From contig CAZNUP010000002.1 in assembly GCA_964576435.1 (NCBI GenBank), positions 42,112 to 106,111 of the forward strand: DNA of 64,000 bases, given 5' to 3'. This DNA comes from an uncultured Gammaproteobacteria bacterium. Lineage in GTDB: Bacteria > Patescibacteriota > Microgenomatia > JAMCZE01. Below, piece after piece: positions 1 through 63,292 of this stretch (positions within the stretch are counted from its first letter, which is position 1; each line of letters opens with the position of its first letter). The translations under genes were made by a program, and so were the position numbers. The notes beneath the pieces are model-generated. The model was given only the letters and a program-made list of their open reading frames with translations. It was not told the origin of the DNA and made no database searches.

Positions 1-1834
<1,834 letters not shown>

Positions 1835-1838
1835 TAAT

Positions 1839-2105: not shown

Positions 2106-2251
2106 ATATTTTTTCTACCTTTTCTAACAATCTATTCTTCATTTTTTAAATTTTCCGCAACTGAAGTGTTAACTTTTTTGGAAAAAGTTTTTTTCAAAAT
2201 GGTTTGATAGTGGTTTTTGAAAAACTCCTTAATTAATATTGATTCTCTCTA

Positions 2252-2290
2252 TTGACACTCCTCCTACTATATTATTAATTATATATATGC
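2252..2290 (+). promoter_or_regulatory. Putative sigma70-like promoter upstream of the giant ORF (TTGACA -35, followed by an AT-rich tatattattaat -10 region)
   Basis: A TTGACA hexamer at 2252-2257 is followed by AT-rich TATATT/TATTAT-like elements. The spacing is ambiguous, so this is a weak call. Confidence 0.2.
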
Positions 2291-2368
2291 AAAATTCCCG
2301 TGACGAGAAATCAAGTTCAAATACTTACTGCAACCTTTATGTTTCACGCAGCCTGAGAGCCTGCATTC

Positions 2369-44377: not shown

Positions 44378-44524
44378 ATGTTGTCAGGAATTGGCACACC
44401 CGAACTAGTAGTTGTCGGTATAGTTTTATTAGTTCTCTTTGGAGGTACAAAACTCCCAGAACTCGCAAGAGGTATTGGAGAAACTTTTAAGGAGTTTCGT
44501 AAGGCTGCTGGTGACACAGTTTAA
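44378..44524 (+). CDS. tatA: Sec-independent translocase protein TatA/E (48 aa)
   Basis: Not in the ORF track because it is under 60 aa. There is a strong SD (AAGGAGGTGA) 8 nt upstream. The sequence MLSGIGTPELVVVGIVLLVLFGGTKLPELARGIGETFKEFRKAAG is a canonical TatA. Confidence 0.7.
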   Translation: MLSGIGTPELVVVGIVLLVLFGGTKLPELARGIGETFKEFRKAAGDTV

Positions 44525-44528
44525 ACAT

Positions 44529-46043
44529 ATGGAAAGATCTGCAAAATTTGCCAAAATAGCATTGTTAGCAGTTCTACTAAACGGGGCAGCCTTGGTGTTC
44601 CCTAAGGACACTTGGGCTGCTGATCGTTTAGATTTTCAAGTTGTGAGTCAAGTTTTAGACACGACGTGGAATTTTTCTGACAGGAGCCTAACAACATTTG
44701 GAAACCTTATTGTGAACCCTCAGGAGCCACCTGTCGTGGCACTTCTTCGACCAAAAGCACCAAAGCCTTCAACAATGGCAGTAGTTCTTGAAACCAAGCC
44801 TGAAGCTTCTACCGAAACTATTCCTACCTTAGATAGTAAGATTCTTCAAACTGAAGCAGTTGCTAAAGAACTTTTTGTTTCAACATCTTATGCAAAAAGT
44901 GAAGCAGGACTTTTGGGACTTAAATGGACAGATTATTCTGGACAAGACGCGGCTTCTAAATTTTATGAACTTCAAAAGAAGTTTGGTCAGGAAACAGATT
45001 CTTCCACAAGTGATTCAATTTTTGGACGCGCAAGCTATTTGAGTGGGTCATGGAATTGGAGTTCTACTACTTTAATAGCAGATAGAATGAAAACCATTGG
45101 CAAAATCTTGAATGATCCAGCGGGACTAACTTATGAGAATGTTCAAACGCTTAGCTCTTTGTTTAATGAACTAGATAGTTTAGTTGGGGACACCAGTGAT
45201 CCATCTGAAAAAGCTACACTTCATGGACAATTATCGCAAACCAAAAATTTAGCTTCCTTACTTTCTCAGCAGACTAGTGATTTAGGGATGCTTCTTTCTA
45301 AGTGGGATAGCTATTCACAGGGAGACAAAGAGCAAAAACTTAATGATATAGCTTTGGGAGTTAAGTCTATAAACCAAATTCCTGGACTTGATGATGTGTT
45401 GTCCGCAACACCATCAGGATCAGATAAAGATCTCAAGAATAAAAGTTATGCAGTACTTGGGGTTGCTAATGCAAATAAACAACTTTTGACAGATAAACCA
45501 GGACAACCTCTTAATAGTAGTTGGCTAGAACTCGGGAGTGTTGTCTTTAAAAACCTGATTTTTAATCCATCTAATACAAACACTCAAGAAATGACGGTTG
45601 ATTACTATTTGCCTCCAGAAGTAGTTAAACAGGAAGATGTTATTGAGATTGATCCAAGTCTGGTTGTTCTTTTTGATTCATCAAAAAAACAGTATCATGT
45701 GACAGGGAAGTTTGTTCTTAATCCACAAGAATCGAAGATTGTTTACGTCCGGGTAAATGATCTTTGGATAATTGACCAAAAAGAGATTTCTAAACTTTCA
45801 GAAGAGGCTAGTGAAGCTTATAAACCATTTTCTAAAGTAGCATTTTTACCATACTTTTCTGAAGGAACTGAAATAAAGAGACAGATTGACGAATCCTTAG
45901 ATAAGGCAATGAAATTTGCTAAAGAATCTGAAGGTTCACCTGAAGAAGAAATAAAATCATATAGACTTGCAAACGATGAGATTAGTAAAGCGTCTAATCT
46001 AATTGAGAAATTACAAGAAAAGGGGAAGATAATTCCATTTTAA
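44529..46043 (+). CDS. Secreted hypothetical protein (505 aa)
   Basis: The ATG at 44529 gives MERSAKFAKIALLAVLLNGAALVFPKDTWAADR, a signal peptide with an AxA site. The ORF track's longer version would read through tatA. Confidence 0.55.
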   Translation: MERSAKFAKIALLAVLLNGAALVFPKDTWAADRLDFQVVSQVLDTTWNFSDRSLTTFGNLIVNPQEPPVVALLRPKAPKPSTMAVVLETKPEASTETIPTLDSKILQTEAVAKELFVSTSYAKSEAGLLGLKWTDYSGQDAASKFYELQKKFGQETDSSTSDSIFGRASYLSGSWNWSSTTLIADRMKTIGKILNDPAGLTYENVQTLSSLFNELDSLVGDTSDPSEKATLHGQLSQTKNLASLLSQQTSDLGMLLSKWDSYSQGDKEQKLNDIALGVKSINQIPGLDDVLSATPSGSDKDLKNKSYAVLGVANANKQLLTDKPGQPLNSSWLELGSVVFKNLIFNPSNTNTQEMTVDYYLPPEVVKQEDVIEIDPSLVVLFDSSKKQYHVTGKFVLNPQESKIVYVRVNDLWIIDQKEISKLSEEASEAYKPFSKVAFLPYFSEGTEIKRQIDESLDKAMKFAKESEGSPEEEIKSYRLANDEISKASNLIEKLQEKGKIIPF

Positions 46044-46063: not shown

Positions 46064-46231
46064 CTATTTTTTATCTTCGTCGTCTTTAATTTGACCGCCT
46101 ATTCCTTCTTTGATGTTTTTAATAGCTTCGCCTAATCCTTTTGCTAGTTCAGGAAGTTTTTTGCCTCCAAAAAGAAGTAGCAAGACTACTGCGACTACGA
46201 TGATTTCAGTTGTTCCAATTTTGTTAAGCAT
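46064..46231 (-). CDS. tatA: Sec-independent translocase protein TatA (55 aa)
   Basis: Not in the ORF track. The sequence is MLNKIGTTEIIVVAVVLLLLFGGKKLPELAKGLGEAIKNIKEGIGG.... Confidence 0.65.
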   Translation of the reverse strand: MLNKIGTTEIIVVAVVLLLLFGGKKLPELAKGLGEAIKNIKEGIGGQIKDDEDKK

Positions 46232-46247
46232 TATTCTTCACCTTCCT

Positions 46248-46973
46248 TCACTTAGATTTAAAAACAAATCTATTTAATATTAAGGTCAATTCGAACAGGA
46301 ATACAAGTGGCAGAAGAAGAAGGGCGTCTGACAAAAGGTCGTTTAAGGGGAGAAGAACTACAAAAATTAAAGCAATAAAGTAAATGATTGCTCTTTGTTT
46401 TGATAGAAACTTGTGAGAAATTACCTTAAATCTGAGAAGGAGGGCAAGAATGATGGGGAACTGGAAGGCGACTCCTAAAAGAGTTGATGTTAGAAGCGTT
46501 TGAGAAAGAAATTGACTAATGTCCAAAAAATTTCCCACACCTAATCCGGTTGTTTGGACATAGAAAAGTTCAACTGTGTAGCGCATGATCAGGATTCCAT
46601 AGGTAAACCCAATCAAGAAAAGGACCAAGCTAACTGGTAGGAGAATTAAAAGTACCCTAAATTCTTTGGGTTTTAGAGCTGGCTTTAGAAAAGCTAGTAA
46701 CTGGAACATTAAAACTGGGAAAACTACCACAAATCCGACCAGAAGACTGGAATTAATTGCTAGGCCTATGAACTGAAATGGGGAAGTGAACACTAAGTTG
46801 ACGCCTTTAAACTCGAAAATACTTAGAACAAAGCTAACAATTTTTTCGTAATAGATAAAACCGATTATTCCTGCTATTAAAAACAGAGAAACTACAAAAA
46901 GAAGCCGCTTTCTAATCTCAATGACGAACGGAAGAAATCTACTGGTGTTGTCTAAAGCTAAATCTTCGAGCAT
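46248..46973 (-). CDS. tatC: Sec-independent translocase protein TatC
   Basis: A 241-aa protein with 6 TM segments in the TatC pattern (N-terminal ...RKRLLFVVSLFLIAGIIGF...). Confidence 0.75.
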   Translation of the reverse strand: MLEDLALDNTSRFLPFVIEIRKRLLFVVSLFLIAGIIGFIYYEKIVSFVLSIFEFKGVNLVFTSPFQFIGLAINSSLLVGFVVVFPVLMFQLLAFLKPALKPKEFRVLLILLPVSLVLFLIGFTYGILIMRYTVELFYVQTTGLGVGNFLDISQFLSQTLLTSTLLGVAFQFPIILALLLRFKVISHKFLSKQRAIIYFIALIFVVLLPLNDLLSDALLLLPLVFLFELTLILNRFVFKSK

Positions 46974-47122
46974 TATTTGTCGTCTTTAGCACCTTTTCTA
47001 AATTCTTTGATGGAATCTCCGAGTCCTTTAAAGAATTCGGGAATTTTCTTTGAACCAAAAAGAAGGATGACAACTGCGGCGATAATTATAATCTCTGTCA
47101 AACCAATATTGAGGCCAAACAT
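46973..47122 (-). CDS. tatA: Sec-independent translocase protein TatA (49 aa)
   Basis: Not in the ORF track. The sequence is [49 protein letters not shown]. Its stop overlaps the tatC start by 1 nt. Confidence 0.65.
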
Positions 47123-47344
47123 TTACGCCACCTCCTTCTCTTTTTCTGAAGTTGAGTCGGACGTAGTGGAATCATTTTCGTTTTCTAAGGCACTTGAAAA
47201 TTCTTTTTTGACCTTTTTAAGTTCTTTACCTGTTTCACCTAAACTTCTAGCCCATTCGGTCATTCTTTTCCCGCCAAAAATTACAAGAAGAACTACACCA
47301 ATGATTATTAATTCTGTTGTGCCAATATTATCTAAGAATGCCAT
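47123..47344 (-). CDS. TatA/TatB-family protein (73 aa, acidic C-terminal tail)
   Basis: MAFLDNIGTTELIIIGVVLLVIFGGKRMTEWARSLGETGKELKK... Its stop codon abuts the next tatA start. Confidence 0.6.
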   Translation of the reverse strand: MAFLDNIGTTELIIIGVVLLVIFGGKRMTEWARSLGETGKELKKVKKEFSSALENENDSTTSDSTSEKEKEVA

Positions 47345-47390: not shown

Positions 47391-47945
47391 TTAGTCAACC
47401 AGAGGGTCCATAGCAACTACATACCAAGCAATTCCGTCCCACATTTCTAGAGATTGGATTTCTGTATTAAAGCCAAGGGTGCCGACTTCTGGTTTTTTAG
47501 GTCTACCGTTTGTGTTCCAGGTGGCAATTCTTGGAAGACCAACCATCACTGACAATCCGCCACCAATTTCAATGTAGGTTGAGGAGTTTTTGGAAAGTTC
47601 TGGCTTGGCGTCGGGATTACTTGGCAGTCTGATATGACCTCCAAGAACAGTGCCTGATCCATCGTTTGCAAATGTTGCACCCAAAACACCCACACCAGTT
47701 GCTTGTTGGATGTCAGTTTCTGTAACTCCAACTCTTTTAAAGGAATCAGCACCATGAGCCGCAAGGGTTAGTTTAAATTTATTACTGCTTGTCCCATGAA
47801 TTAGGAGATTATTTGACCAAGTTCTGGCGTCAGTGCCATGGAAGATGATTGCCGACTTTGATTTAAAAGTGTCTGTCGCATGAAGAACGCCAGTGTCTCT
47901 GGATTTTATTGCGTCAGCGGTGTGAGTAATTAGAATGTTATCCAT
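47391..47945 (-). CDS. Hypothetical protein (184 aa) with N-terminal HxTD repeats and a C-terminal domain shared with the serine-rich repeat protein
   Basis: Repeats ITHTADA / VLHATDT / IFHGTDA / LIHGTSS / AAHGADS lie about 13 aa apart. The C-terminus RIATWNTNGRPKKPEVGTLGFNTEIQSLEMWDGIAWY aligns with [37 protein letters not shown] of the next gene. Confidence 0.55.
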   Translation of the reverse strand: MDNILITHTADAIKSRDTGVLHATDTFKSKSAIIFHGTDARTWSNNLLIHGTSSNKFKLTLAAHGADSFKRVGVTETDIQQATGVGVLGATFANDGSGTVLGGHIRLPSNPDAKPELSKNSSTYIEIGGGLSVMVGLPRIATWNTNGRPKKPEVGTLGFNTEIQSLEMWDGIAWYVVAMDPLVD

Positions 47946-47946
47946 A

Positions 47947-50900
47947 TTAATTTGAATTAGGATTTAAATTCATACGTAAAGTGTACCAGGATTGTCCACC
48001 CCAGAGTTCTAGATTTCCTGTATCTGTATTTAGACCTAGTGTTCCTGATTTTGGTTTCATTGGCCTCGTTGATGTTGTCCAGGTGGCCATTTTGGTTAGG
48101 CCAAGTAGGCCGGAACCTCTTGGGGTAACTTTACCCAGCATTGATGGTTGATACTTTGGAGCAGTTGGCCTATTAACCAACAGTTCTAACTCAGCTGGCG
48201 TTAAATTACCACCCCTTAAGAATGCATCAGTTGTGTTGGAGATTGTATATGAGGGGATTGACGATTCACTGGGACTGGCACTGCCAGTTGGGGAGAAGCT
48301 TAGTGAAATACTAATCGATTGGCTTATTGAACCTGTTGGACTTGCTGAAGCAGATTCAGATGATGATGGAGATGGGGAGAAGCTACTTGATGGTGAAGTA
48401 GATGAAGACTCCGAGAGTGATGAACTTTCAGAAATAGATGTTGAGAGTGAAGCTGATGGTGAAAGACTGGCACTTGGTGAGACTGAAGCAGATGTGCTAC
48501 TTGACTCTGAACCTGATAAAGATTCTGATGCACTTTCTGAAAGTGAGGACGATGGACTTTGGCTAGCACTTTGTGACAAAGAAGAACTTTGTGAGAGTGA
48601 TGAACTTTCAGAAAGAGAAGCGGATGGAGAAAGTGACGCCGAGGTACTTCCTGACGTGGAGCTACTTATAGAAGCTGAGGTGCTTTGGGAAACAGAAGAA
48701 GATTGTGAAATTGATGAGGACTCCGATAAACTACTTGACTGTGAGAGTGAAGATGATTCTGACAAACTAGCTGAAGGTGACAAGCTTGCACTTGGTGAAG
48801 TTGATGCAGAAATACTTGGAGAAATTGAAGAACTTATTGAAGCGGATGTACTTTCTGAAACAGAACTACTTGGAGAAAGTGAACTTGACTGGGAAATAGA
48901 AGCTGATGGTGATTGACTTGCTGATGGTGACAATGAGGATGATTCCGACAAACTTGCTGATGGGGAAATCGAGGCTGACGGAGAAAGAGACGACGATGTA
49001 CTTCTACTAGTTGAGGAACTTGTTGATGCAGAAATACTAGACGAGGTTGACGTGGATGGAGAAACTGATTGTGATTCTGACAAACTACTAGATGGTGAGA
49101 GTGATGAACTTGGTGACAAAGATGCTGATGGAGAAATAGAAGCACTGGGTGAGATTGATGCTGATGGAGATGTGGAAGCTGAAACACTAGCACTAGTTGA
49201 AGCTGAAACTGATGCGGAAGTACTTGCTGATGTTGAGGAACTTGGTGATAGGGATGCCGAACTACTTGCTGAAGCAGATCTTGATGCAGAGGATGAACTA
49301 CTTGCTGAAATTGAAGATGACGGGGAAAGACTTGCGCTTGGTGATATAGAAGATGATGGAGAAAGAGACGCTGATGGTGAAAGGGATGCTGATGGAGAAG
49401 TTGATGATGATGGTGAAAGAGATCTGGAAGCACTGGAACTTGTTGAAGATGAAACTGAAGCAGAAGTGCTTGCTGAAGTTGATGAGCTTGGCGAAATTGA
49501 GGCAGAAGGAGAAGTGGATGATGAAGGAGATAGAGATGACGAAGGTGAAAGGCTTGCACTTGGAGAAAGTGATGCTGACGGAGAAGTAGATGCCGATGGT
49601 GATAGGGAGCGCGATGCACTAGCTGATGTTGAAGCACTTTGTGAAGCCGATGTGCTTGCTGAAGTGGAACTACTTGGTGATTGCGATGCGGATGGTGAGA
49701 GTGATGCAGATGGAGAAGTTGATGATGATGGGGAAAGTGACGCAGATGGTGAGATTGATGCGCTTGGTGATGTTGATGAGCTTGGACTTTGAGATGCAGA
49801 CGCACTGGCACTAGTTGAGGCAGAGGTTGACGCTGAACTACTTGCTGAAACAGACGAACTTGGACTTTGAGAAGCAGATGGAGAAATGGATGATGAGGGT
49901 GAAACACTGGCGCTTGGTGAAAGCGATGCTGATGGTGAAACAGATGCCGATGGTGAGAGAGAGGAAGAAGCACTTGCGCTTGTTGAAGCTGAAACGGAGG
50001 CTGACGAACTTGCTGACACGGATGAACTTGGTGAGACTGAAGCTGACGGAGAAACAGATGATGAAGGTGATAATGACGAACTAGGTGATTGTGATGCTGA
50101 TGGGGAAAGGGATGCACTTGGTGACTGTGAGGCAGAAGGGGAAACTGATGCAGAGCTACTTGCTGATGTTGAAGATGAAACAGATGCAGAACTACTTGCG
50201 GAGGTTGATGATGAGGGTGAAATCGATGCCGATGGGGATAAACTAGAGCTTGGTGAAGTACTAGATGATGGACTTAATGAAGCTGATGGTGAAACTGACG
50301 CTGACGGGGAGACTGAGGCTGATGGTGAAAGAGAACTTGATGCACTAGCTGATGTCGACGCACTTGTTGATGCAGAACTACTGGCAGAAACGGAGGAACT
50401 TGGTGACTGAGAAGAAGAAGGTGAGACTGAAGCAGACGGAGATGTTGATGATGATGGGGAAAGTGATGCAGATGGTGAGATTGATGCACTTGGTGAAATT
50501 GAAGATGATGGCGAAAGGGAACTAGATGTACTGGCACTAGTTGAGGCAGAGGTTGACGCTGAACTACTTGCTGAAACAGACGAACTTGGACTTTGAGAAG
50601 CAGATGGAGAGGTGGAAGAACTTGGCGATGTTGAGGAGGATGGAGATAAACTTGCTGAAGGTGAAAGCGAAGCACTAGGAGAAGTGGATGCAGATGGTGA
50701 CAAAGATGATGATGCACTAGCTGATGTTGAAGCACTTACTGAAGCAGATGTACTTGCTGAAATAGAACTTGAGGGACTTAAACTTGCGGATGGTGAGACA
50801 CTCGAGCTTGGTGATAAAGATGCACTTGGTGACAAACTTGCTGATGGGGAGACACTTGAACTTGGAGATTGTGATGCTGATGCACTGGCACTAGTTGAAG

Positions 50901-51936
50901 CTGAAACTGAAGCTGAACTACTTGCTGAAACAGATGAACTTGGGCTTTGAGAAGCAGATGGGGAGATTGAAGCGGAAGGTGATGTTGAAGCAGATGGAGA
51001 AAGTGATGATGACGGTGACAAACTTGCAGATGGTGAAACAGAAGCTGAAGGTGAGAGTGAACTTGATGCACTGGCTGACATTGAGCTACTAGCTGATGCT
51101 GATGAACTTGCTGATGTTGAAGATGATGGACTTATACTCGCCGATGGTGATGTTGAAGCAGATGGAGAAAGACTTGATGATGGAGAAAGTGAAGCGGAAG
51201 GAGAAAGTGATGCGGAAGCTGATGCAGAAACTGATGATGATGCGGAAGCTGAACTACTTGCGGAGCTTGATGAACTTGGTGACTGCGATGCTGATGGAGA
51301 AGTAGATGACGAAGGTGAAGTTGACGCTGATGGTGAAAGACTGGAACTTGGTGATAACGATGCTGACGGTGAGACTGATGCTGATGGCGAAAGAGAACTT
51401 GATGCACTGGCACTAGTTGAAGCTGACACTGATGCGGAAGTACTTGCTGAAGTTGAAGATGAAGGGCTAGTACTTGCACTTGGTGAAAGACTGGAACTTG
51501 GCGATAGTGATGCTGAGGGTGATATTGATGCGCTTTGAGAAATAGAAGCGGATGGACTTTGAGAGGCTGACACACTTGAGGAAGTTGAAGCACTTACTGA
51601 AGCTGAGGCGCTTTGTGAGGCAGAGGCACTTGGAGAAAGTGATGCTGATGGACTAAGGGAAGCTGAAGTTGAAGCACTTGTTGATGCGGAGGTACTAGAA
51701 CTTGGACTTTGCGAGGCAGAGGTACTTGCTGATGTAGATGCTGATGCTGATTCTGATGGACTTAAGCTGGCACTGCTTGCTGAATAGACAGGATATGGTT
51801 GTCCTGGATAAGGTTGACCAAAATCTGTCGTACCAATACCAGAACCTCCTTGAGGAGATTGTTGTGGTGGGGTAGCATTTGGGTCGTCGTTACCTTGAGC
51901 GGGATATGGGTTACCAAAATAGTTAGAACCGAACAT
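47947..51936 (-). CDS. Serine-rich repeat protein (1329 aa), mucin/SRRP-like, with no signal peptide
   Basis: About 1,100 aa of SAS(T/V/L)S(A/P)S repeats (S[PATLVQ]S[AS]...). The N-terminus is [15 protein letters not shown]... with no hydrophobic segment. The unique C-terminal ~130 aa share a domain with the 47391-47945 protein. Confidence 0.7.
48120..51780 (-). repeat. Degenerate short-period coding repeat (6-12 nt periodicity) encoding the Ser-rich tract
   Basis: This low-complexity DNA produces spurious long ORFs in all other frames (D/E/G-rich on the plus strand, H/Q/L-rich on the minus strand). Confidence 0.8.
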
Positions 51937-52012: not shown

Positions 52013-52570
52013 TTATTTTTTAATTAAGACTACTTGAATGTCCATTACAACATTTGTGTAATGCCTGAGTGCAAAGGCTTTGGCTTCTTCACTTCTCATT
52101 GCCCAATCTGGGGTGAAATCATATCCAAAAGAAAAATCAAAATCGCAATGTATTGGATAATGATCTAATTTGTTTTGTACTCTCCAATCTTTGTTGTAAT
52201 AGAGGAACGTGGCTTCGGAAATTACTCTTGTATGTGTGGGATCTTGCCAGGCGCGGACTGAGTTGTAATAGGGTGCACGAATTAAGGCTTTTGCCCCTGG
52301 CTTCATGATTCTATAAAGTTCCTCCATAAACTTTATGATGTCTTTTGTGTGCTCAATATAGTGACTGGAAAAAATTTCATCAACGCTATTGTCTGGAATT
52401 GGCCAGGGAAATTTCTCAAGGTCATAAACCATGTCAACTCCGTCTGACTTAGCAATATCGATGCCAAAGAAACCTGGGGCCTTGTTTTGCCCACAGCCAA
52501 TATCAAGCTTAAATGGTGAGGGAAAATTTAACGGGCTTTCTTTCTTTTTTGTTTTTATGTTTTTGGACAT
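52013..52570 (-). CDS. Class I SAM-dependent methyltransferase
   Basis: Motif I LDIGCGQNKAPG and motif II VDEIFSSHYIEH fit the Methyltransf_11/23-type fold. Confidence 0.65.
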   Translation of the reverse strand: MSKNIKTKKKESPLNFPSPFKLDIGCGQNKAPGFFGIDIAKSDGVDMVYDLEKFPWPIPDNSVDEIFSSHYIEHTKDIIKFMEELYRIMKPGAKALIRAPYYNSVRAWQDPTHTRVISEATFLYYNKDWRVQNKLDHYPIHCDFDFSFGYDFTPDWAMRSEEAKAFALRHYTNVVMDIQVVLIKK

Positions 52571-52582
52571 ATGCGAATTATA

Positions 52583-53299
52583 TTACCAGACTAAATCGTT
52601 TACTAGATCGTAGTTGCCAGCTTTAATTCTTGTATCGCAAGCAACTTTGTATCCAAGTTTTTGAATATTCTCGAAGAAAAAAAGATCAAGCATGTCATCT
52701 GGATTTTTGCCAGGGTGCCTTAAAAAAGGAGTTCTAAACCATGGTCTTGGAACTCTGGGGTCTCTGAAGATGTCCAATTTGAAAAGAGTGTAAGAGGTAG
52801 TTAAACCCAAGCATGGTTGGATGCCGTCAACAACAGAGGAAACGGTTTGAAATGATAAGGGAAAAGAATTTGGATGGCCAAAAATTTGTGGTTTACCTTC
52901 CTCTCCTTTTGACCAAATTAAACCGCCAACAACATCGTATTTGCCAATTGATTCAAAAAGACGAGGTAAGCCGTCCAAAGGTGGAAGGATGGTTTCTTCC
53001 AAAGTTAAAATATATTTAAAAGTACTAAGTCCGGGATTTGTTAGAATTTGTTCGATTGCAGCATTATAGGCAAAGTTTTTTTCAAGATTCATCATCATTA
53101 GGCGCATGAATTTTTGATTCATTTGGCTAATTTGATAGAGCCATCTTTCGGCAACTTTTGCGTGAATCGCTCCTGAGTTTGGGATGATGCAAATTGTTCC
53201 TAAGTCTTTATAGCTTTGGGAAGTATAAAGTCTATTTATAGAGGAATTTAAATCACTATTGTGTTTGCCTTGAAAATCGGGATAAGTCAGATCTACCAT
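52583..53299 (-). CDS. Putative GT-A-like glycosyltransferase (paralogue of the next gene)
   Basis: TICIIPNSG near the N-terminus; conserved DIFRDPRVPRPWF and KVACDTRIK..YD shared with the 53293 gene. Confidence 0.35.
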   Translation of the reverse strand: MVDLTYPDFQGKHNSDLNSSINRLYTSQSYKDLGTICIIPNSGAIHAKVAERWLYQISQMNQKFMRLMMMNLEKNFAYNAAIEQILTNPGLSTFKYILTLEETILPPLDGLPRLFESIGKYDVVGGLIWSKGEEGKPQIFGHPNSFPLSFQTVSSVVDGIQPCLGLTTSYTLFKLDIFRDPRVPRPWFRTPFLRHPGKNPDDMLDLFFFENIQKLGYKVACDTRIKAGNYDLVNDLVW

Positions 53300-54015
53300 A
53301 CAATGTCGTTTTCCGCATCATAGTGGCCGACTTTTATCCTTGTGTCACAAGCCACTTTATAATTAAGTTTTTTGATGTTTTCATAAAAATAGAGGTCTTG
53401 GCTATAGCCTCTAATGCCAACGTTTGGAGCAAATTCCTGGAGTGTTTTAAACCATGGTCTTGGAACTCTGGGGTCTCTGAAGATATCTTTTTTGAAAAGA
53501 TTGAATCCCATTCCTAGTCCATTGCATTCTTGAATGGTTTCCGGAATTGGAACTTGGGGAACAAAATTAATTTCCTCTCTTTTATGGTCGCCATAAATCA
53601 TTGGTTGGCCGGCGTCGCCTTTTGTCCAATATAGACCTCCCACAACATCAAATTTTTCCATACCTTCATAGAGCTTTAAGAGTCCGTCGGGAGGAGGCAT
53701 ATTGTCTTCTTCTAAAGTGAGGATATATTTCCAGGAACGAAGGATAGGATTTTCTAAAATTTGAGTGATTGCTTGAGTGTAGGCGGCGCCAACTTCCATG
53801 CCGATAACAAACATACGCATAAATTTTTGATTCATTGGCACCATTAAACCCCACCAGCTTTGCAAAACTTTGGCTGAAATCATGCCTCTCGTTGGGATAA
53901 TGCAGATGGTTGACAGATCTCTATAAAATTCATTGGTTGATAGTTTTTCAGATAAATCAACTGAAATTTGCGCAGGAGGGTCAAAATGGTCAATCACAAT
54001 TTGTGGTTTCGTCAT
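53293..54015 (-). CDS. Putative GT-A-like glycosyltransferase (paralogue of the previous gene)
   Basis: TICIIPTRG, ILTLEEDN (a DxD-like motif), DIFRDPRVPRPWF; overlaps its neighbour by 7 nt. Confidence 0.35.
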   Translation of the reverse strand: MTKPQIVIDHFDPPAQISVDLSEKLSTNEFYRDLSTICIIPTRGMISAKVLQSWWGLMVPMNQKFMRMFVIGMEVGAAYTQAITQILENPILRSWKYILTLEEDNMPPPDGLLKLYEGMEKFDVVGGLYWTKGDAGQPMIYGDHKREEINFVPQVPIPETIQECNGLGMGFNLFKKDIFRDPRVPRPWFKTLQEFAPNVGIRGYSQDLYFYENIKKLNYKVACDTRIKVGHYDAENDIVW

Positions 54016-54028
54016 AGCAGCGAGTTTA

Positions 54029-55171
54029 TCATGTGGAAACGAAAGTTACCGCTGGTAAAATGGTCGCTGTTGAGCCAGCACCACCTGTTGTTCCTAGTTC
54101 GCTTATGGTAATTGCAGTTGGAATGGCGGTTCCACCAAAACCTGCTCTTCCTGTGTTTGTTAGAAAGCCAACAATGTTTCTGCCCCACCAATTTGTGAAG
54201 GCAGAGTTGCTGGCACTCCAAGCCGTGGAGGCAACACCAATCGGCATCAACGAACCAGAGACCATATTTACCGGATTAATGGGTTGACCAATTATGCCTG
54301 CATTACTTAGGCCAAAGGTTGACCTGGTGTCGCCATTGCTTCTTAATTGCAGTAAGCCAATCCAATAAACACCACCTGTCAAGCTCGTCATATCGGCACC
54401 AAATTGTAAGCCAATAATTCTTGTTCCAGAGATGAATGATGACATAAGTCCTGTTGTTGTTAAGCCTGTGCTGCCATTAGTATTGAATGGTCCATACCCG
54501 TAGCCACTGGTCATGGTTGTCGTTGGAAAATTCCAAGTTACTGAGCGGCTATTTAAAGTTTGAGAAATGCCAAAAGAGTTACTGGTTATTAAACTTAGTG
54601 AGTTGTCATTTCTACTATAGAGTCCAAAATAGGAAAAGTGAGTGTGGCTAGCTGCTCCAATGGCGCTGGTTGCAAGGGACAATGAATTGCCAATTAGAAT
54701 TTGATTAAAGTTAAGGTTCGGGGGAATTGTTACTGGGAAAACAAAAAGCGAATTAGTTCCCGTGACTGAGGTGTAATTTGCAGCAATTGTTTGTAATCCA
54801 GTTTGGCCAGCTCCGGCAATGTGGACTGGAGCCCAGTAGGTGAGAGGGGCACTGGCATCGGTCATGGTTTTTTCGGTGATGGTGGCAGCGATTTGAAAGC
54901 CAACTTGAAAAGATTGGGAAGAAGAGCTTTCTTGGGTTCTTAAAATTGTAAAAGTGTCGACATCAATGTCTGTCACCCGGATAATTTCAGCATTGGTGGA
55001 AATTGGTTGGGTTCCCGATGGCCAGACAGTGGCATTAAAAGGAGGTGGGGGAAATTTTAATCCATCTCCAGCTTGCACTGTTAAAGTTGTTCCTGTCCCA
55101 GGATTTGTTGTGTCACCCTGGTTGGTTCCCCGAATTGTTGAATAGGCAAAGTTTCTATGTGCGTCAGCCAT
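54029..55171 (-). CDS. Tandem-paralogue hypothetical protein 3 of 3 (380 aa); candidate structural/glycan-acceptor protein
   Basis: Shares N-terminal ...FPPPPFNATVWPSGTQPISTNAEIIRVTD...DTFTILRTQE, a mid-region ...GYGYGPFNT... and C-terminal ATILPAVTFVST with the two upstream genes. It has no signal peptide or TM and is S/T/N/G-rich. Confidence 0.55.
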   Translation of the reverse strand: MADAHRNFAYSTIRGTNQGDTTNPGTGTTLTVQAGDGLKFPPPPFNATVWPSGTQPISTNAEIIRVTDIDVDTFTILRTQESSSSQSFQVGFQIAATITEKTMTDASAPLTYWAPVHIAGAGQTGLQTIAANYTSVTGTNSLFVFPVTIPPNLNFNQILIGNSLSLATSAIGAASHTHFSYFGLYSRNDNSLSLITSNSFGISQTLNSRSVTWNFPTTTMTSGYGYGPFNTNGSTGLTTTGLMSSFISGTRIIGLQFGADMTSLTGGVYWIGLLQLRSNGDTRSTFGLSNAGIIGQPINPVNMVSGSLMPIGVASTAWSASNSAFTNWWGRNIVGFLTNTGRAGFGGTAIPTAITISELGTTGGAGSTATILPAVTFVST

Positions 55172-55172
55172 C

Positions 55173-56291
55173 TTAAGTAGACATTACATTAGAATAAAAG
55201 GTAACAGTTGGCAAAATTGTGGCTGTTGAGTTGGCAGCTGAAGCACCAAGAGCTGATAAGTTAATGCTGTCTGGAACTGTGGTGCCACCAAAATTTCCAA
55301 GAGAAGTGGCAGTGACAAAAGCAACCATGTGTCGACCCCACCACTGGGTGCTGTTGCCAACATTTGTTCCGCCCCAAAGCGAAGCCACTGAACCTATGGG
55401 CAAAACACCGCTGACGCTGCCCGCAAGATGGGGAGGGTCAATTATTTGACCAATGACACCAGAGATAATTACTCCTGCTCCACTATTATTTGCTGTGCTT
55501 CTAAGTGACATGAGGCCAAGATAGTATATGCCGTTTGTTAGATGCATTTCACTGCCAAATTGCATCCCCACAGCTCTCGTTCCTGAGATGTAGTTAACAA
55601 TTTGAGCGGTGTTGCTCATTGCTAAAGTGTCATAACCATAACCGCTGGTGTTGGTTGTTGTTGGGAAACTCCAAGTTCGTGAGAGGCCGTTCATGCTTTC
55701 AGCGATTGAAAAAGACCCTGTGGCCATTAAAGACAATGCAGTGCTTGCGTTCATAGTATAGAGGCCAAAATAAGAATAGTATGAATTGCTGCCTTGGGCG
55801 TTACTTGTTGTATATGACATTGAGACTGGAAGAATGGCTTGGTTAAAATAGATATTGTTGTTGACAGTTACTGGAAAAACAAAAAGTGAGCCAGATGATG
55901 ATTGTCCTGAAGCAGAAGCTAAGGTTTGAAGTGAGGTAGCTGCAGCTGAAGAGTAAATAAATGGGGACCAAGTGGCAAATGAATTTTCAGCTTCGACTAA
56001 GGTTTGTGCTGTAATTGCTGCAGAAATTTGGTCACCAACAATAATGTTTTTGGCGTTAGTGTCCTCTTGCGCTCTTTCTACAGTAAATGTGTCAGTAGAT
56101 TTGGATACAACGAGCACTATTTCTGCATTTTCTGATGTGGGTTGTTCGCCTGTGGGCCAAATGGTAGCGTAAAAAGGAGTGTCTGGGAAAAGACTGCCAG
56201 TCCCTGCTGAAACTACTAATGAAGTGCCAGTATTGTTGGGTGTTGGGGCGGTGTCAATTGCTGATATGGCAAAATTATTGAAATTACTCAT
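55173..56291 (-). CDS. Tandem-paralogue hypothetical protein 2 of 3 (372 aa)
   Basis: ...SLFPDTPFYATIWPTGEQPTSENAEIVLVV...TFTVERAQE...; C-terminal TILPTVTFYSNVMST. Confidence 0.55.
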   Translation of the reverse strand: MSNFNNFAISAIDTAPTPNNTGTSLVVSAGTGSLFPDTPFYATIWPTGEQPTSENAEIVLVVSKSTDTFTVERAQEDTNAKNIIVGDQISAAITAQTLVEAENSFATWSPFIYSSAAATSLQTLASASGQSSSGSLFVFPVTVNNNIYFNQAILPVSMSYTTSNAQGSNSYYSYFGLYTMNASTALSLMATGSFSIAESMNGLSRTWSFPTTTNTSGYGYDTLAMSNTAQIVNYISGTRAVGMQFGSEMHLTNGIYYLGLMSLRSTANNSGAGVIISGVIGQIIDPPHLAGSVSGVLPIGSVASLWGGTNVGNSTQWWGRHMVAFVTATSLGNFGGTTVPDSINLSALGASAANSTATILPTVTFYSNVMST

Positions 56292-56295
56292 AATT

Positions 56296-57411
56296 TCATG
56301 TAGAAACCAAGCTTACTATTGGTAGGACCGTAGCAATAGTGTTTGCAGTTTGTAAGTTAGCAAGTTCGATTACGTTTGGTAACCTGGTGCCGCCAAATCC
56401 TTGCTGAGCGGTATTGGTGGCAAAGCCCATTATAAACCGACCATTCCAACCTGAGATTCGATTGTTGCTTTGAGCAAATTCTGCGGCTGCTTGACCTATT
56501 GGGTTCATGCCGCTAACTGAACCGGCCATGTTAATGGGATTTATTACTTGGCCGATAATTCCAGCATGGGAAAAACCTAGTGAAGAAACACTTCCGGCAG
56601 TACTTCTGTAGGTGAGAATTGCAAGCCAATAAATACCGCCTGTAATAGATAACTCAGTGTTAAATTGTAATTGCACTTTTCGGGCTCCTGATATAAGTGA
56701 AACCATTTGAGCTGTTGTGGAAATGTTACCAACTCCGGGAAAAGAAGTGCCATAAGCGTAGCCTGTTGTGGCGGTGCTTGTTGGATAGCTCCATGTTAGG
56801 CTGACACTGTTTAGAGTTTCAAGAATACTAAACGAATTAGAAGTGATGAGTTCCATAGTATTTGATGACATTGAATAGAGTCCAAAATTGGAAAAATAGG
56901 TGTTACTGACTCCGGCACTATTGGTGGTCATATACGACTGTGATTGGGCTATAACTATCTGATTAAAGCGCATGGGGAAGGGGAGAGTCATCGGGAAAAT
57001 AAAAATGGAACCGGTTCCTGTTGTAGAGGAATTTGCGGCAAGAGTCTGAACTCCGGTGCCTGCAGAGGCAGCGATTGTTGGAGCCCAGCTATTTATGTAG
57101 TAGTTTTCTAAATCAGTAAAGGTTTTGGCTGTTAAAGCGGCGGCAATTTGGTAACCTGATTGAAGGTTGATGCTTGCAGAGCCTTCCTGCTGACGGGTTA
57201 TTGTAAAGTTGTCTGATGCAATTCCTGTGACTCTAACTATTTCGGCATTAGTGCTAGTTGGTTGTGTGCCGCTTGGCCAAACAGTGGCATTGAAAGGCGG
57301 GGTTGGGAAAAGTGATCCCTGGCCAGTTTGAACATCTAAAGAAGTGCCACCAGTTCCTGGGGAATTGGCAAGAGTGGAATATGCGAAATTTGCGAATTGA
57401 TCGATTGCCAT
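56296..57411 (-). CDS. Tandem-paralogue hypothetical protein 1 of 3 (371 aa)
   Basis: ...SLFPTPPFNATVWPSGTQPTSTNAEIVRVTG...NFTITRQQE...; C-terminal TVLPIVSLVST. Confidence 0.55.
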   Translation of the reverse strand: MAIDQFANFAYSTLANSPGTGGTSLDVQTGQGSLFPTPPFNATVWPSGTQPTSTNAEIVRVTGIASDNFTITRQQEGSASINLQSGYQIAAALTAKTFTDLENYYINSWAPTIAASAGTGVQTLAANSSTTGTGSIFIFPMTLPFPMRFNQIVIAQSQSYMTTNSAGVSNTYFSNFGLYSMSSNTMELITSNSFSILETLNSVSLTWSYPTSTATTGYAYGTSFPGVGNISTTAQMVSLISGARKVQLQFNTELSITGGIYWLAILTYRSTAGSVSSLGFSHAGIIGQVINPINMAGSVSGMNPIGQAAAEFAQSNNRISGWNGRFIMGFATNTAQQGFGGTRLPNVIELANLQTANTIATVLPIVSLVST

Positions 57412-57421
57412 ATTTTAGAGA

Positions 57422-59167
57422 TTATTTTAGCATTTTTAAACGTCTTTGAGGTCTTGGAATTTCTAGTAATTCTCTTAAATTTTGCCAACCTTCTAGTGAA
57501 TCTATGTTTCCTTCTTGCCAGTTTATGAGGAGTTGTTGGTTTCTAAATTCTTCTTTTTGCCATCTGGCTTTGGTAGCATTTTCCCCGTGTTTGACGTCTA
57601 TATTTGGAAACTCTGATTTCCAGGTTTTTAAAGTGTAGATCGTTTGCCATTTAATTCTTTGGTGGGTCATAGGTTCAAAACCCATGTCAGCCGAGTAGCC
57701 TTGGCTTTTAATAAATGCTACGCGTTCTCTAAAATGAGTAATTAGTTCCTCCCGAAATCCACAAAGGCCCGATAATTGGTTTACATCATAGTGAAGTGTG
57801 TGACCATCGGATTTTCTTAGGAACCAAACATTTTGGTTATAGTAGAAAGAGTTTCTATCGTCTGGCGTAAAGTCAAAGTGGCTGGGATGGTAAAACACAT
57901 CATGTTCGCAAAAGAAAATGATGTCTGACTTGCTATTTTCTAACGCCCCAAGAATTTGAGTAAACATGGCTAAGGGACTTTTCTTAAGAGAGGGGAAACG
58001 AATGTTTTTAACTCCGAAATCCAGTTTTTTGAGAGTTGCGGAAACAATGGGGATGTTTTTTTCTGAACTAATTTTTTGCAATTGATCGCGAACGGGTTTG
58101 GCAATTTTTTCGTCTAGCTCGCTATCTGAATAGTAGATTATGCCTTTGGTTTTAGGGCTAGACATTGGTGATTCCTCAGTTGGTTCAATTTCAGCTGGTT
58201 TTGATTGATCGTTTGAATTCGAAAAGGTAAAAGTGTTGTTTTTTAGTTTTTCTAGATCCTCATTAGTCCAACCTTTAACTGGCCAAAACTTTTCAACAAG
58301 CCATGACAGGGGTTTTTTTTGGAGAGGCCATTTGTTATTAAAGAAAAGGTCTCTGGCATATTTTTTGGCGTATTCTTGATCTTTGCCTGAGATTGGATAG
58401 GGGAAACCAAAGTCACCACCTTGAGTTCTAAACATATGTGCATACCAAGTTTTTTTATTACAAAGAACACGACCACCTGAAAGCCAAGTTTTAACTGCAA
58501 CTTCAATTCCTTGTGAGCCCCAGCTACCAAAAGCTTCATCACAAATACCAAGTTCCCAATATTTTTCTCTAGTTAGCATCCAACAAGACCCTTGGAGAGA
58601 CATGGTTTCTGTTATTTCTCCTTGGCCTTCGGGACGTTTGCTGTAATCGCCGAAATATTGGAAGTGGGGTGTTGAGTCAAAACAATAGGAAATACTTTTT
58701 GGACTTTCTTTTGCTATCCAAACAACATCTCTTGTGGTTGGCTTTCCGCATTCCGTACAAGGACCTGATTTTCCTTGATATCTTCTATGGCCATTTTCGC
58801 AAATCCAATCAAAAGCGTGGAGATTTTTCATTAATGGAACCATAGTCCAATCAGATTGCATCTCACTAGTCATCTTTATATCAAACCCTTTGTCAAACGA
58901 ACAATGTGCATCACATTTCATTAAATATTTAGCTCGAGACAATTGAGCGGCTTCATTGGTTGCGGCTCTTTGACCAATGCTTTCATTGTGGTAAATAAGT
59001 GTCACTCGGTCGTCATCTTGGACCGGGGGATTGGCCCAAATACCATCTAAAACGGCGATTATTTCTGTGTTGCCTTCAATTTTTTCGAGAATATCCTGAA
59101 TTGTCCTTGCCAGGAACATTTCATTTCGGGCAGGGATGAGAATGGAAAGATCTGGGGTATTGGTCAT
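57422..59167 (-). CDS. Two-domain glycosyltransferase; the N-terminal GT-A domain has a D-x-H motif and a WGxxxxE...HMFR motif (GT27 polypeptide-GalNAc-transferase-like / GT2-like)
   Basis: LSILIPARNE, then YLMKCDAHCSFDKGFD (DxH), then WGSQGIEVAVKTWLSGGRVLCNKKTWYAHMFR (compare the ppGalNAc-T motif WGGENLEISFRIWQCGG...HVFR). It has no TM, so it is cytoplasmic. Confidence 0.55.
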   Translation of the reverse strand: MTNTPDLSILIPARNEMFLARTIQDILEKIEGNTEIIAVLDGIWANPPVQDDDRVTLIYHNESIGQRAATNEAAQLSRAKYLMKCDAHCSFDKGFDIKMTSEMQSDWTMVPLMKNLHAFDWICENGHRRYQGKSGPCTECGKPTTRDVVWIAKESPKSISYCFDSTPHFQYFGDYSKRPEGQGEITETMSLQGSCWMLTREKYWELGICDEAFGSWGSQGIEVAVKTWLSGGRVLCNKKTWYAHMFRTQGGDFGFPYPISGKDQEYAKKYARDLFFNNKWPLQKKPLSWLVEKFWPVKGWTNEDLEKLKNNTFTFSNSNDQSKPAEIEPTEESPMSSPKTKGIIYYSDSELDEKIAKPVRDQLQKISSEKNIPIVSATLKKLDFGVKNIRFPSLKKSPLAMFTQILGALENSKSDIIFFCEHDVFYHPSHFDFTPDDRNSFYYNQNVWFLRKSDGHTLHYDVNQLSGLCGFREELITHFRERVAFIKSQGYSADMGFEPMTHQRIKWQTIYTLKTWKSEFPNIDVKHGENATKARWQKEEFRNQQLLINWQEGNIDSLEGWQNLRELLEIPRPQRRLKMLK

Positions 59168-59173
59168 AGAGCT

Positions 59174-60088
59174 TTACCAAAGGAATGTCTTTTCAATTCC
59201 TTGATCTAGGGAAAGAGTTTTTCTCCCAGTTGCTTGGCGAAATTTTTGTGAATCTAGGACAGAATTTTTGAGCCTTAGATTGGATTCAATTGGGCCAAAA
59301 AACTGCTTTAGTGTTACAGGATTTACTTTGTTGGTTGGCACGTTTAGTTTTTTACAAACTTTTTGTGCTAGTTCGTAGGGACTTGCGATTTGACTTCCGG
59401 CAATATGATAAATTCCTTTTGCGCCGACATCCAAAAGTGCAATGGTTCCTTCTGTTAGATCATCAATATGGGTGAAAGCTATTTTTTGATCGGTGACAGC
59501 GTTTGTTTTTCCTTTATAGATAAGGTTGTTAACTATACCTTGAACCATGTTGCTGCCTAAACCTCCTTGGCCATAAGCAACAACGCCTCTAACTATTAGA
59601 AACCTCTTTAATCCTGAGTTTAAAACTAGGTCTTCAGCAATACTTTTTGTCTGGCCATACCAGTTTTTTGGTTCTTTGGTATCAGTTTCTTTGTAGCTAT
59701 CTTTTTCTCCTGAAAAAACGCATTCCGTTGAAAGTAGAACAAGTGTTTTACTATTTTCTTTGCAGTAGTTAATTATATTTTGGGTCCCTACAACATTTAC
59801 TTGCCAAGCCAGACTATCTTGACCTAAATTTTTTTCTAGTTCACATCTATCTATATGAGCATAGGCTGCAGCGTGAATTACTATGTTGGCGTCACTTTTA
59901 AGAGTCATAGGCTTAGTCAGGTCGCGCCTTACATATGTTGTTAATTTGGAAGAGTTTTTGGGTGGGGGAGTTTGGTGGTAAACGCCAAGGACTTTATTCT
60001 TGTCAAGATTATCTAAAAATCTTCTTCCTATAAAACCGGCAACGCCGGTTATTATGTAGCTATCTGATTTTTTGGTCTTTTTCTTCAT
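59174..60088 (-). CDS. NAD-dependent sugar epimerase/dehydratase (SDR family)
   Basis: Rossmann motif TGVAGFIG near the N-terminus; about 300 aa; it sits within the GT/MT cluster. Confidence 0.65.
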   Translation of the reverse strand: MKKKTKKSDSYIITGVAGFIGRRFLDNLDKNKVLGVYHQTPPPKNSSKLTTYVRRDLTKPMTLKSDANIVIHAAAYAHIDRCELEKNLGQDSLAWQVNVVGTQNIINYCKENSKTLVLLSTECVFSGEKDSYKETDTKEPKNWYGQTKSIAEDLVLNSGLKRFLIVRGVVAYGQGGLGSNMVQGIVNNLIYKGKTNAVTDQKIAFTHIDDLTEGTIALLDVGAKGIYHIAGSQIASPYELAQKVCKKLNVPTNKVNPVTLKQFFGPIESNLRLKNSVLDSQKFRQATGRKTLSLDQGIEKTFLW

Positions 60089-60930
60089 AGTGTTTCTTTA
60101 GGTAGGGGAGAGAATTTTTCTACTAACCAAGAAAAGTCGTGAACTCGTTCTTTCCATTTGTTATTTAGCCAGTAGTCAGCAGCAAACTCTCTGCCCTGTT
60201 TAATTCCCTCATTATATGCTCTTTGTTCCTGGTGGGTGAAGCCATAGCCTCTACTATCTCTATGCCAGTGGGCATACCAAGTTTTTTTGTTTACAACGAC
60301 CCTTCCTCCTGAAAGCCAAGCTTTATTGCCAATTTCTTGGGCCTCATTGGCAAAACTTCCGTAAGCTTGGTCATCCATGGGGCCAATTACATCCCAGAAG
60401 AAGTCTTTTTTTAAAAACCAACAGGAACCTTGAAAGGTCATGGTGTCATCGATTAGTATGTCTTTTCTTTCTTCTGCACGTTGTTTCCATTCGTTACCAT
60501 GAAGATAGCCGTCTTTGTTTTCTAGATACATGTAATCAATTGGTGGGCGTCCGTCTTTAATTATTTGCCAATTGTCGGCATCAAGCCTGTATCTTCTTGG
60601 AATTACAACCCAATTATCTGAAGAGTCGGCGATGAGTTTTTGGTCAAACCCTTCATCAAACATGCAATGTTCGTCTGTTTTCATTAGATAGGTTCCTTTA
60701 GCAATTGCCATGCCGGCATTTATGCCAGCGCGCATGCCTTTTCCCATCCCAGGTTTTCCTTGATGAATGACTTTTATTCTTGAATCCGTCCAGTTATATT
60801 CTTTGGGCCAATAGCCATCGAGGACGACAACCACTTCAACATTTCCTTTTGCTTTAGAAAGGATGTCGTCTATGGTTTTTTGCAAATAATCCTCAGTCCG
60901 ACTGGGGATAATAACAGAGAGATCTATCAT
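60085..60930 (-). CDS. GT-A glycosyltransferase with D-x-H and WGxxxxE motifs (GT27-like / GT2-like), paralogue of 57422 and 63293
   Basis: LSVIIPSRTE, YLMKTDEHCMFDEGFD, FANEAQEIGNKAWLSGGRVVVNKKTWYAHWHR. Confidence 0.55.
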   Translation of the reverse strand: MIDLSVIIPSRTEDYLQKTIDDILSKAKGNVEVVVVLDGYWPKEYNWTDSRIKVIHQGKPGMGKGMRAGINAGMAIAKGTYLMKTDEHCMFDEGFDQKLIADSSDNWVVIPRRYRLDADNWQIIKDGRPPIDYMYLENKDGYLHGNEWKQRAEERKDILIDDTMTFQGSCWFLKKDFFWDVIGPMDDQAYGSFANEAQEIGNKAWLSGGRVVVNKKTWYAHWHRDSRGYGFTHQEQRAYNEGIKQGREFAADYWLNNKWKERVHDFSWLVEKFSPLPKETL

Positions 60931-60956
60931 GTGGGTAAGTTTTTAGGGCAGAAGAA

Positions 60957-61481: not shown

Positions 61482-61517
61482 ATGTTTCTTACATTTTATG
61501 TTATCACATTTATTTTT

Positions 61518-62165: not shown

Positions 62166-62166
62166 T

Positions 62167-63290: not shown

Positions 63291-63292
63291 GG

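Follow-up and report, generated by a model that had tools for sequence, protein, structure and literature searches.

A phage-type beta-prism II module as the likely trimer clasp of a conserved serine-rich and HxTD-repeat protein pair encoded beside tat genes in Patescibacteria

Why would two neighbouring bacterial proteins that are otherwise unrelated end in the same short domain? The question is raised by two adjacent genes on a contig of an uncultured patescibacterium (GenBank assembly GCA_964576435.1, contig CAZNUP010000002.1, positions 42,112 to 106,111). One encodes a serine-rich protein of 1329 amino acids (aa), hereafter the Ser-rich protein, and the other a small protein of 184 aa with HxTD repeats. 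The stretch of 64,000 nucleotides (nt) that contains them is called the window, and coordinates refer to it unless a related locus is named. An earlier reading of the letters alone (the sequence-only reading) had proposed that a C-terminal domain of about 45 aa is common to both proteins and serves for docking, sorting or oligomerisation. Here, we analyse what this module is, where else it occurs and which role fits it best. The pair and its parts are laid out as follows.

47391–47945, minus strand: gene of the small protein, 184 aa, with five 14-residue HxTD repeats, a linker and a C-terminal module of the S type (list of open reading frames, ORFs; relatives of 113–326 aa have the same layout)
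47406–47603, minus strand: full S-type module of the small protein, residues 115–180, made up of an upstream beta-hairpin and the core (alignments, AlphaFold)
47412–47531, minus strand: core of the S-type module, residues 139–178, counterpart of the tailspike D4 beta-prism II unit (hhalign, Foldseek)
47947–51936, minus strand: gene of the Ser-rich protein, 1329 aa (ORF list; C-terminal module in frame)
47968–48114, minus strand: L-type module of the Ser-rich protein, residues 1275–1323 (BLASTP; match to the hidden Markov model, HMM, of the module at 1279–1323)
48259–51783, minus strand: Ser-rich stalk of 1175 aa, of which 57% are Ser, containing (S-x)n and SPS repeats (composition)

The two genes are separated by a gap of 1 nt between the stop codon of the Ser-rich gene and the start codon of the small gene. 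As the C-terminal module is in frame on the minus strand, this strand carries the true Ser-rich gene. Residues 132–180 of the small protein align without gaps to residues 1275–1323 of the Ser-rich protein, with 24 of 49 positions identical (49%) and 36 of 49 positive (BLASTP, E 2e-15 with composition-based statistics). The conserved positions common to both modules are W, R-P, P, G, G-F/L-N-T, L-E, W, G and W-Y. Since residues such as W, R-P, P, G, N-T, L-E and W-Y are shared, the similarity is not one of low complexity, and the pairwise alignment that the sequence-only reading had called for bears out its shared C-terminal domain and removes the objection that only low-complexity residues match. 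Judging from this alignment, the S-type and L-type modules are homologous. The proposed size of about 45 aa fits the core of about 40 aa; in the small-protein family, however, a beta-hairpin of the type 'SKNxxxYIxIGxGLSxMxG' precedes the core, so that the conserved unit is longer, at about 65 aa. This upstream hairpin is degenerate in the Ser-rich protein of the window. The C-termini of the window proteins, including '...AWYVVAMDPLVD', consist of the module itself, without an LPXTG motif and transmembrane segment.

The identity of the module emerged from comparisons with solved structures. Our module profile matched residues 370–406 of the 410 residues of PDB chain 9d83_D (hmmsearch, E 0.0027), which was identified as gp49 of Shigella phage B2 from the gp49 papers and by tblastn. 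The C-terminus of B2 gp49 in turn matches residues 574–625 of the tailspike TSP3 of phage CBA120 (E 7e-5), and the profile of the module family aligns with the C-termini of B2 gp49 and CBA120 TSP3 over 39 columns (hhalign, 94.5%, E 8e-8). The structure predicted by AlphaFold points in the same direction. The S-type module stretch has a mean predicted local distance difference test score (pLDDT) of 82.7, with the core above 90, and the model comprises three short antiparallel strands (positions 43–46, 51–55 and 60–64) with the hairpin ahead of them. Its best Foldseek match in the PDB is 5w6f_A, that is TSP3, with a root-mean-square deviation (rmsd) of 1.1 Å over 39 columns (probability 1.0, E 0.19). 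Other fold matches are likewise trimerisation units, namely the trimerisation domain of collagen XV/XVIII (template modelling score about 0.6, rmsd 2.2–2.7 Å) and the Mtd trimer.

In TSP3, the D4 subdomain is a three-stranded antiparallel sheet of 39 residues, three copies of which form a beta-prism II on a three-fold axis, with Asn, Trp and Pro lining the core of the prism; the ends of the P22 and Det7 tailspikes have the same architecture (PMC6517402). These three residue types are also invariant in the module, where the W, P, G, N, E, G and W columns do not vary. Furthermore, its sequence follows R-P-x2-P ... aromatic-(N/D)-T ... W ... (G/N) ... W within some 40 aa. Because the module is a homologue of the TSP3 subdomain, which assembles as a trimeric beta-prism II, it is most likely a C-terminal trimer clasp or fibre-end knob. 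Among the roles offered by the sequence-only reading, an oligomerisation domain is thus the one that this homology supports best.

The module is widespread. An exhaustive HMMER search of 1.8 billion cluster representatives with the profile of the small-protein family gave 922 matches at E<=1e-3, of which the best 150 were listed and re-scanned with an HMM of the module alone. Among 153 sequences (these best 150 of the 922 matches and others), 49 carry the module at their exact C-terminus, which answers the suggestion to look for further proteins ending in it. The N-terminal parts ahead of the C-terminal module are unrelated and include HxTD repeats, LamG-like domains and 22-residue repeats. 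The module also occurs on its own in proteins of 55–100 aa, and in tandem arrays of 3–18 copies, for example ahead of a pectate-lyase-like domain. This distribution supports an independent, portable domain.

Many carriers are phage proteins. Both window modules match PHROG 1325 (E 5e-7 and 3.7e-6), and further matches are PHROGs 4831, 24138 and 2803, all of 'unknown function'; the PHROG families carry the module near the N-terminus (positions ~40–81). In total, 284 phage records contain the module (tblastn), among them minor tail proteins of Streptomyces phages and structural-region proteins of T4-like cyanophages. Gp25 of Streptomyces phage Endor2, for instance, has the module ahead of HxH repeats and an S74 chaperone domain; phage proteins thus place it at N-terminal or internal positions too. 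Members of a subfamily that ends in '...WNGSAWV' have their genes on podophage-like contigs, between those for capsid and adaptor. In BFVD, the fold matches phage proteins labelled 'tail fiber' or 'glycine-rich domain' (probability 1.0, E 1e-4 to 1e-2). DUF7360 (PF24059), a family for which no function is recorded either, is matched by 16 of 38 module instances at E<=1, with a best E of 1.6e-5, and Mtd_N and DUF7422 gave weaker matches below the Pfam threshold. Scans against Pfam and NCBIfam returned no significant family for either window protein, a scan of IMG/VR gave no close relative of the module type found in bacteria of the candidate phyla radiation (CPR), and searches of a library of papers for DUF7360 and DUF7422 brought up nothing relevant. 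The module is a member of a family of fibre and tailspike modules from phages that is large and has no name.

In bacteria, the module marks a conserved gene pair. Genome and metagenome scans together with contig look-ups provided 13 distinct bacterial loci (the window, L001, L009/L016, L010, L011, L012, L017, L018, L019/L020, L021, L027–L029, L030 and L031), and the relatives of the window locus come from Woesebacteria and other Patescibacteria assemblies, which makes a CPR bacterium the most likely source of the window. In all 13 loci, the gene of a small module-ending protein lies within 1–48 nt after those of one or two Ser-rich proteins that end in the module as well. Complete Ser-rich ORFs span 679–2372 aa; the small protein consists of HxTD repeats plus the module (113–290 aa) or of the module alone (63–66 aa). 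The N-terminal heads of the large proteins have no significant match in Pfam or among the PHROGs. S-type modules are closer to each other across genomes (mean 55.7%) than to the adjacent L-type module (49.4%), and the two types are therefore old, separately conserved paralogues. As they represent separate old lineages, a recent duplication or gene conversion between the two modules was rejected. To have such a Ser-rich and small module pair conserved, and linked to tat genes, is new here.

The Ser-rich genes are easily overlooked. In public annotation they are mis-called as antisense ORFs rich in D, E, G and L, such as the ORF of 1106 aa on the minus strand of L001 (6584–9904). The true, module-ending Ser-rich ORFs lie at 6105–9989 (plus strand) in L001, at 3–4100 (plus strand) in L027 and upstream of position 1404 in L031, and in the window, shadow ORFs overlie the Ser-rich gene at 48152–50410. 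Wrong-strand calls probably hide the Ser-rich family from protein databases. A word-indexed protein search found only 2–27 relatives, which is probably owed to the mis-called large genes and to the shortness of the module. Between 48001 and 52000, the window has a GC skew of about 0.40 and its GC content is raised to 0.45–0.46, both due to the codon bias of the minus-strand Ser-rich gene.

Downstream of the pair lie genes of the twin-arginine translocation (Tat) system, which in the window are the following.

47123–47344, minus strand: long-type TatA-family gene, 73 aa, 46 nt downstream of the small gene (Pfam TatA_B_E, E 4e-12)
46973–47122, minus strand: short TatA gene, 49 aa (phmmer match to TatA)
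46248–46973, minus strand: tatC (Pfam TatC, E 1.8e-35)
46064–46231, minus strand: third TatA gene, 55 aa (ORF list, phmmer match)
44378–44524, plus strand: fourth TatA gene, ahead of a secreted 504-aa protein

Twelve of the loci extend past the small gene, and in 11 of them tatA genes follow it directly. Contigs of sufficient length show tatA(long), tatA(short) and tatC in this order, with gaps of 43–120 nt. Since TatC is only 45–53% identical between loci, the linkage of the pair to Tat does not reflect synteny of close relatives. No terminator-like hairpin was found between 44000 and 52700 of the window. In L017 (2–1065), a gene for an HxTD-plus-module protein, a TatA gene, a module-only gene (65 aa) and another TatA gene are interleaved, which looks like a duplicated two-gene unit.

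Some features of the Tat genes themselves deserve mention. Four TatA-family genes surround the one tatC in the window. The long TatA ('...SGETVKExKKxKKEF') is distinct, occupies the same position after the small gene in other loci and is possibly TatB-like. The secreted 504-aa protein (44529–46043, plus strand) starts 5 nt after its TatA gene, and homologues of 822–901 aa are placed likewise in L001 and L009/L016. Instead of a twin-arginine motif, the signal of this protein has one Arg only ('SAKF'/'SARF').

As a whole, these observations are best explained by a phage-type three-fold beta-prism II module that acts as a C-terminal trimer clasp or end-knob on bacterial fibrous proteins, an explanation to which we assign a probability of roughly 0.6. 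Three copies of the module would pack round a three-fold axis into a beta-prism II. The Ser-rich protein would be a long stalk, held together as a trimer by its L-type module and probably O-glycosylated by the glycosyltransferases encoded upstream. The small protein, a short HxTD-repeat fibre here and a bare module in other lineages, may act at that end of the fibre too, either co-assembling as a cap or partner or helping assembly. The co-transcribed TatA/TatA/TatC would offer a candidate route to the cell surface, and this is the least certain step. Tat is the obvious candidate because such fibres would fold and oligomerise in the cytoplasm and lack a signal peptide. Phage fibres do fold and trimerise in the cytoplasm, and to our knowledge Tat is the only general export route for folded proteins.

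Several points weigh against this explanation. The module is only about 23–26% identical to the solved tailspike members, and trimerisation is deduced from homology. The Foldseek E-values against the PDB are weak (0.04–0.2), because the domain is tiny. Against DUF7360, the window module reaches 15.3 bits, below the gathering threshold of 27.6 bits (E 0.018, profile positions 3–37 of 39). That the small protein serves as a cap, a partner or a helper is purely our inference. In L030 (1–3063), the Ser-rich and module-only pair is followed by a 195-aa protein with no significant Pfam or PHROG match and then by the contig end, with no tatA directly after the pair. Two further points concern the Tat step. 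In the module proteins, we found neither an RR within the first 40 aa nor an N-terminal hydrophobic segment; their maximum 12-residue hydropathy is 1.9 or less compared to 2.1–2.8 in signal-bearing controls from the same loci. Furthermore, L009 encodes a 403-aa protein (6663–7874; L016 6612–7823) at a distance of about 4 kb from its tat genes whose signal, 'LTRRDFFKVAGAAAAGA', is of the textbook twin-arginine kind, which suggests that the Tat system of L009 probably has ordinary clients too.

Could the module instead be what the Tat system recognises? The sequence-only reading had considered an export tag, and of this idea the neighbourhood holds up (tatA/tatC linkage in 11 of the 12 loci), whereas the module shows no signal-like feature and is N-terminal or internal in phages. 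The pair also differs from substrates of LPXTG- or PEP-CTERM-type sorting, as both proteins lack the terminal hydrophobic helix with basic residues and the Sec signal. If the module were a C-terminal recognition element for the co-encoded Tat, or the small S-type protein a Tat pilot or adaptor, signal-less, pre-folded and glycosylated fibres would be exported. This would account for the conserved tatA(long)-tatA(short)-tatC order next to the pair despite the divergence of TatC (45–53% identity), for the interleaving of module and tatA genes in L017, for the position of the module at the very C-terminus in all bacterial loci and for proteins that look like surface fibres yet have neither a Sec nor a Tat signal. 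However, every Tat signal known to us is N-terminal, the module proteins have no RR motif, and phage proteins that are never exported carry the module at N-terminal or internal positions. The fold of the module is that of a structural trimer unit, and the pair in L030 has no adjacent tatA. We thus consider recognition of the module by Tat unlikely.

A broader proposal joins the trimer clasp to the Tat genes. The phage-derived fibres of Microgenomates-type CPR bacteria might fold, trimerise and be glycosylated in the cytoplasm and then be exported without a signal by a dedicated TatA(long)/TatA/TatC, with the small S-type protein as pilot or cap. Literature searches on CPR with Tat and serine-rich proteins, or on CPR with tail fibres, returned nothing relevant. 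We regard the proposal as speculative and would give it a small chance, slightly above that of Tat recognition of the module. If true, it would describe a Tat-based counterpart of the accessory Sec system for serine-rich adhesins and the first Tat clients recognised via a C-terminal folded domain, which would widen what Tat recognises.

Another use of a beta-prism II would be binding. Beta-prism II is also the architecture of the snowdrop lectin (PMC6517402), and the module might be a carbohydrate- or cell-wall-binding unit, lectin-like or similar to a propeller blade, that anchors the proteins non-covalently in place of LPXTG. Arrays of 3–18 modules with a period of ~43–47 aa, some of them ahead of a pectate-lyase-like domain in the secreted protein P0051, would suit such a function, as would weak local matches of the 'WDGxxWY' type to fucose lectins and designed Kelch blades. 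The polarity is also that of Gram-positive adhesins, with the module end C-terminal and lectin-like LamG heads N-terminal. But the lectin and Kelch matches span 13–22 aligned residues per repeat, with E >= 0.4 for the lectins, and the low E-value of the Kelch match is only the sum of six identical short repeat matches. A propeller blade of the Kelch or lectin type would be four-stranded and repeated 4–8 times in one ring; the tandem arrays have 3 to 18 copies of the module, and its single C-terminal copy has three core strands. No sugar-binding motif of lectins is present, the conserved Asn, Trp and Pro line the core of the TSP3 prism rather than a binding site, and this explanation leaves unclear how signal-less proteins would reach the wall. 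A PDB search with a profile of 4 sequences gave lectin matches at chance level only. We therefore judge a wall anchor to be about as improbable as recognition by Tat, and continue to favour the trimer clasp.

A second phage-like element is the repeat of the small protein.

47736–47933, minus strand: region of 14-residue 'HxTD' repeats, with His at residues 8, 22, 36, 50 and 64

The five His units are HTAD, HATD, HGTD, HGTS and HGAD; the regularly spaced units noticed by the sequence-only reading are thus present, with a period of exactly 14 residues and not about 13. Across 1974 repeats from 80 proteins, the consensus reads H-T-T-D-A-L-(L/K)-R-K-x-x-T-(V/L)-(T/S), and the small protein fits the 14-residue 'HTTD' repeat family, in which H-T/S-T-D recurs at a strict period of 14–15 residues. 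A profile search detected giants of this family of up to 4026 aa with about 110 units. Such giants (L022–L025 and P0006–P0015) occur on IMG/VR viral contigs, where they adjoin genes for a tail protein and capsid-like proteins, and many end in a W-rich 'VLVNGxWV...NGxW...(F/Y)DGxxW' that resembles the last strands of the module. We found no relative of the HxTD repeat in the PDB, Pfam or PHROGs. In the AlphaFold monomer, the repeat region has a pLDDT below 50, and such low confidence of a monomer model would be expected for an oligomeric fibre shaft. The beta-helix with a histidine ladder suggested by the sequence-only reading, and likewise a His/Asp metal ladder, would be conjectural.

The setting of the pair is a bacterial chromosome. 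The window encodes AtpD (ATP synthase beta subunit), leucyl- and arginyl-tRNA synthetases (LeuRS, ArgRS), ComEA/ComEC and two tRNAs; the idea that the whole locus is a phage was rejected in view of AtpD, LeuRS, ArgRS and ComEC. Upstream of the Ser-rich gene, the following features lie on the same strand.

52013–63982, minus strand: gene cluster with methyltransferases, GT2 glycosyltransferases, an epimerase-like gene and sets of paralogues (Pfam, PHROGs, ORF list)
52583–54015, minus strand: two adjacent paralogues of 238 and 240 aa, with no Pfam family
54029–57411, minus strand: three tandem paralogues of 380, 372 and 371 aa, whose first ~100 residues match the phage tail-fibre PHROGs 8469, 30299 and 6427, with no Pfam family

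L001, L012 and L021 likewise have genes of glycosyltransferase type ahead of the Ser-rich gene. In L001 and L021, four or five tandem paralogues of about 200 aa from another unannotated family lie upstream of the Ser-rich gene and are possibly glycosyltransferase-like. Far from the pair, a single ORF of 6464 aa occupies positions 2369–21763 (plus strand) of the window and has no match to the module.

With phage-like elements in a bacterial chromosome, the locus could be a decayed prophage fibre cassette next to which the tat genes are inherited synteny without functional meaning. The module, the HxTD repeat (on IMG/VR viral contigs) and the tail-fibre-like N-termini of the three paralogues are all phage-like, and close relatives with the '...WNGSAWV' ending sit between capsid and adaptor genes on podophage-like contigs. 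Against this stand the housekeeping genes of the window and the gene calls over about 10 kb in the bacterial loci, where no gene for a capsid, terminase or portal was noted. Moreover, the pair, its order and its ORFs of 1300–2400 aa are intact across genomes with 45–53% TatC identity, and no close relative was found in IMG/VR. A decayed cassette is thus very unlikely. Least credible of all, and barely worth retaining, is the proposal of the sequence-only reading that the module docks both proteins onto the three upstream paralogues of 371–380 aa, which are on the same strand within 6–10 kb and have an N-terminal domain of phage tail-fibre type (PHROG 8469), as no homologue of them was found in the flanks of the six related loci searched (L001, L009–L012, L016–L021), all of which keep the module pair.

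These comparisons tell what a very common unnamed module is in structural terms, and which role it likely has, where it was otherwise only DUF7360-like or part of PHROGs of 'unknown function'. They also show that CPR bacteria keep parts of phage fibres: the module and the HTTD repeat of 14 residues share a conserved operon on the chromosome with glycosyltransferases and Tat. Little is understood of the surface appendages of CPR cells, which live attached to hosts; a conserved and probably glycosylated fibre system is a concrete candidate for such an appendage.

Among known systems, the closest to the module is the D4 subdomain of CBA120 TSP3 (PDB 5W6F and 6NW9; Greenfield et al. 2019, PMC6517402). 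Both are units of about 39 aa at the extreme C-terminus of a fibre-like protein, which is trimeric in TSP3, and they share the three-stranded antiparallel sheet and the pattern R-P-x2-P ... aromatic-(D/N)-T ... W-x-(G/N) ... W. However, TSP3 is a virion glycosidase with a beta-helix, whereas the carriers of the module are encoded on bacterial chromosomes and have a Ser-rich stalk or HxTD repeats, and the module of the small protein has an extra N-terminal hairpin. B2 gp49 (PDB 9D83 and 9D84; Sci Adv 2024, PMC11654681) resembles the window proteins in its C-terminal module and belongs to a C3-symmetric gp48/gp49 tailspike complex; unlike them, it is the virion-proximal piece of a two-protein tailspike (gp49 and gp48). 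Its similarity to our module profile is borderline (E 0.0027), and the module is not described in PMC11654681. DUF7360 and PHROGs 1325, 4831, 24138 and 2803 contain the same motif of about 39 aa, although the PHROG copies differ in lying near the N-terminus. The D4 domains of the P22 and Det7 tailspikes, the foldon of T4 fibritin, which is the C-terminal trimerisation unit of that fibre, and the collagen XV/XVIII domain are all small C-terminal beta domains that lock the trimers of long fibres; here, the likeness is a functional analogy without sequence relationship.

For the Ser-rich protein, the comparison is with the serine-rich repeat glycoprotein adhesins Fap1, GspB and SraP of Gram-positive bacteria, which use the accessory Sec system. 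Like the window, they combine an (S-x)n stalk of great length with glycosyltransferase genes nearby and with an export operon that looks dedicated and adjoins the substrate gene. In contrast to them, the Ser-rich protein of the window has a polar N-terminus without a signal peptide and no LPXTG anchor, and its C-terminus is a phage-type module. Furthermore, the neighbours scanned with Pfam include no Sec component (SecA2/SecY2), and the adjacent translocase is Tat.

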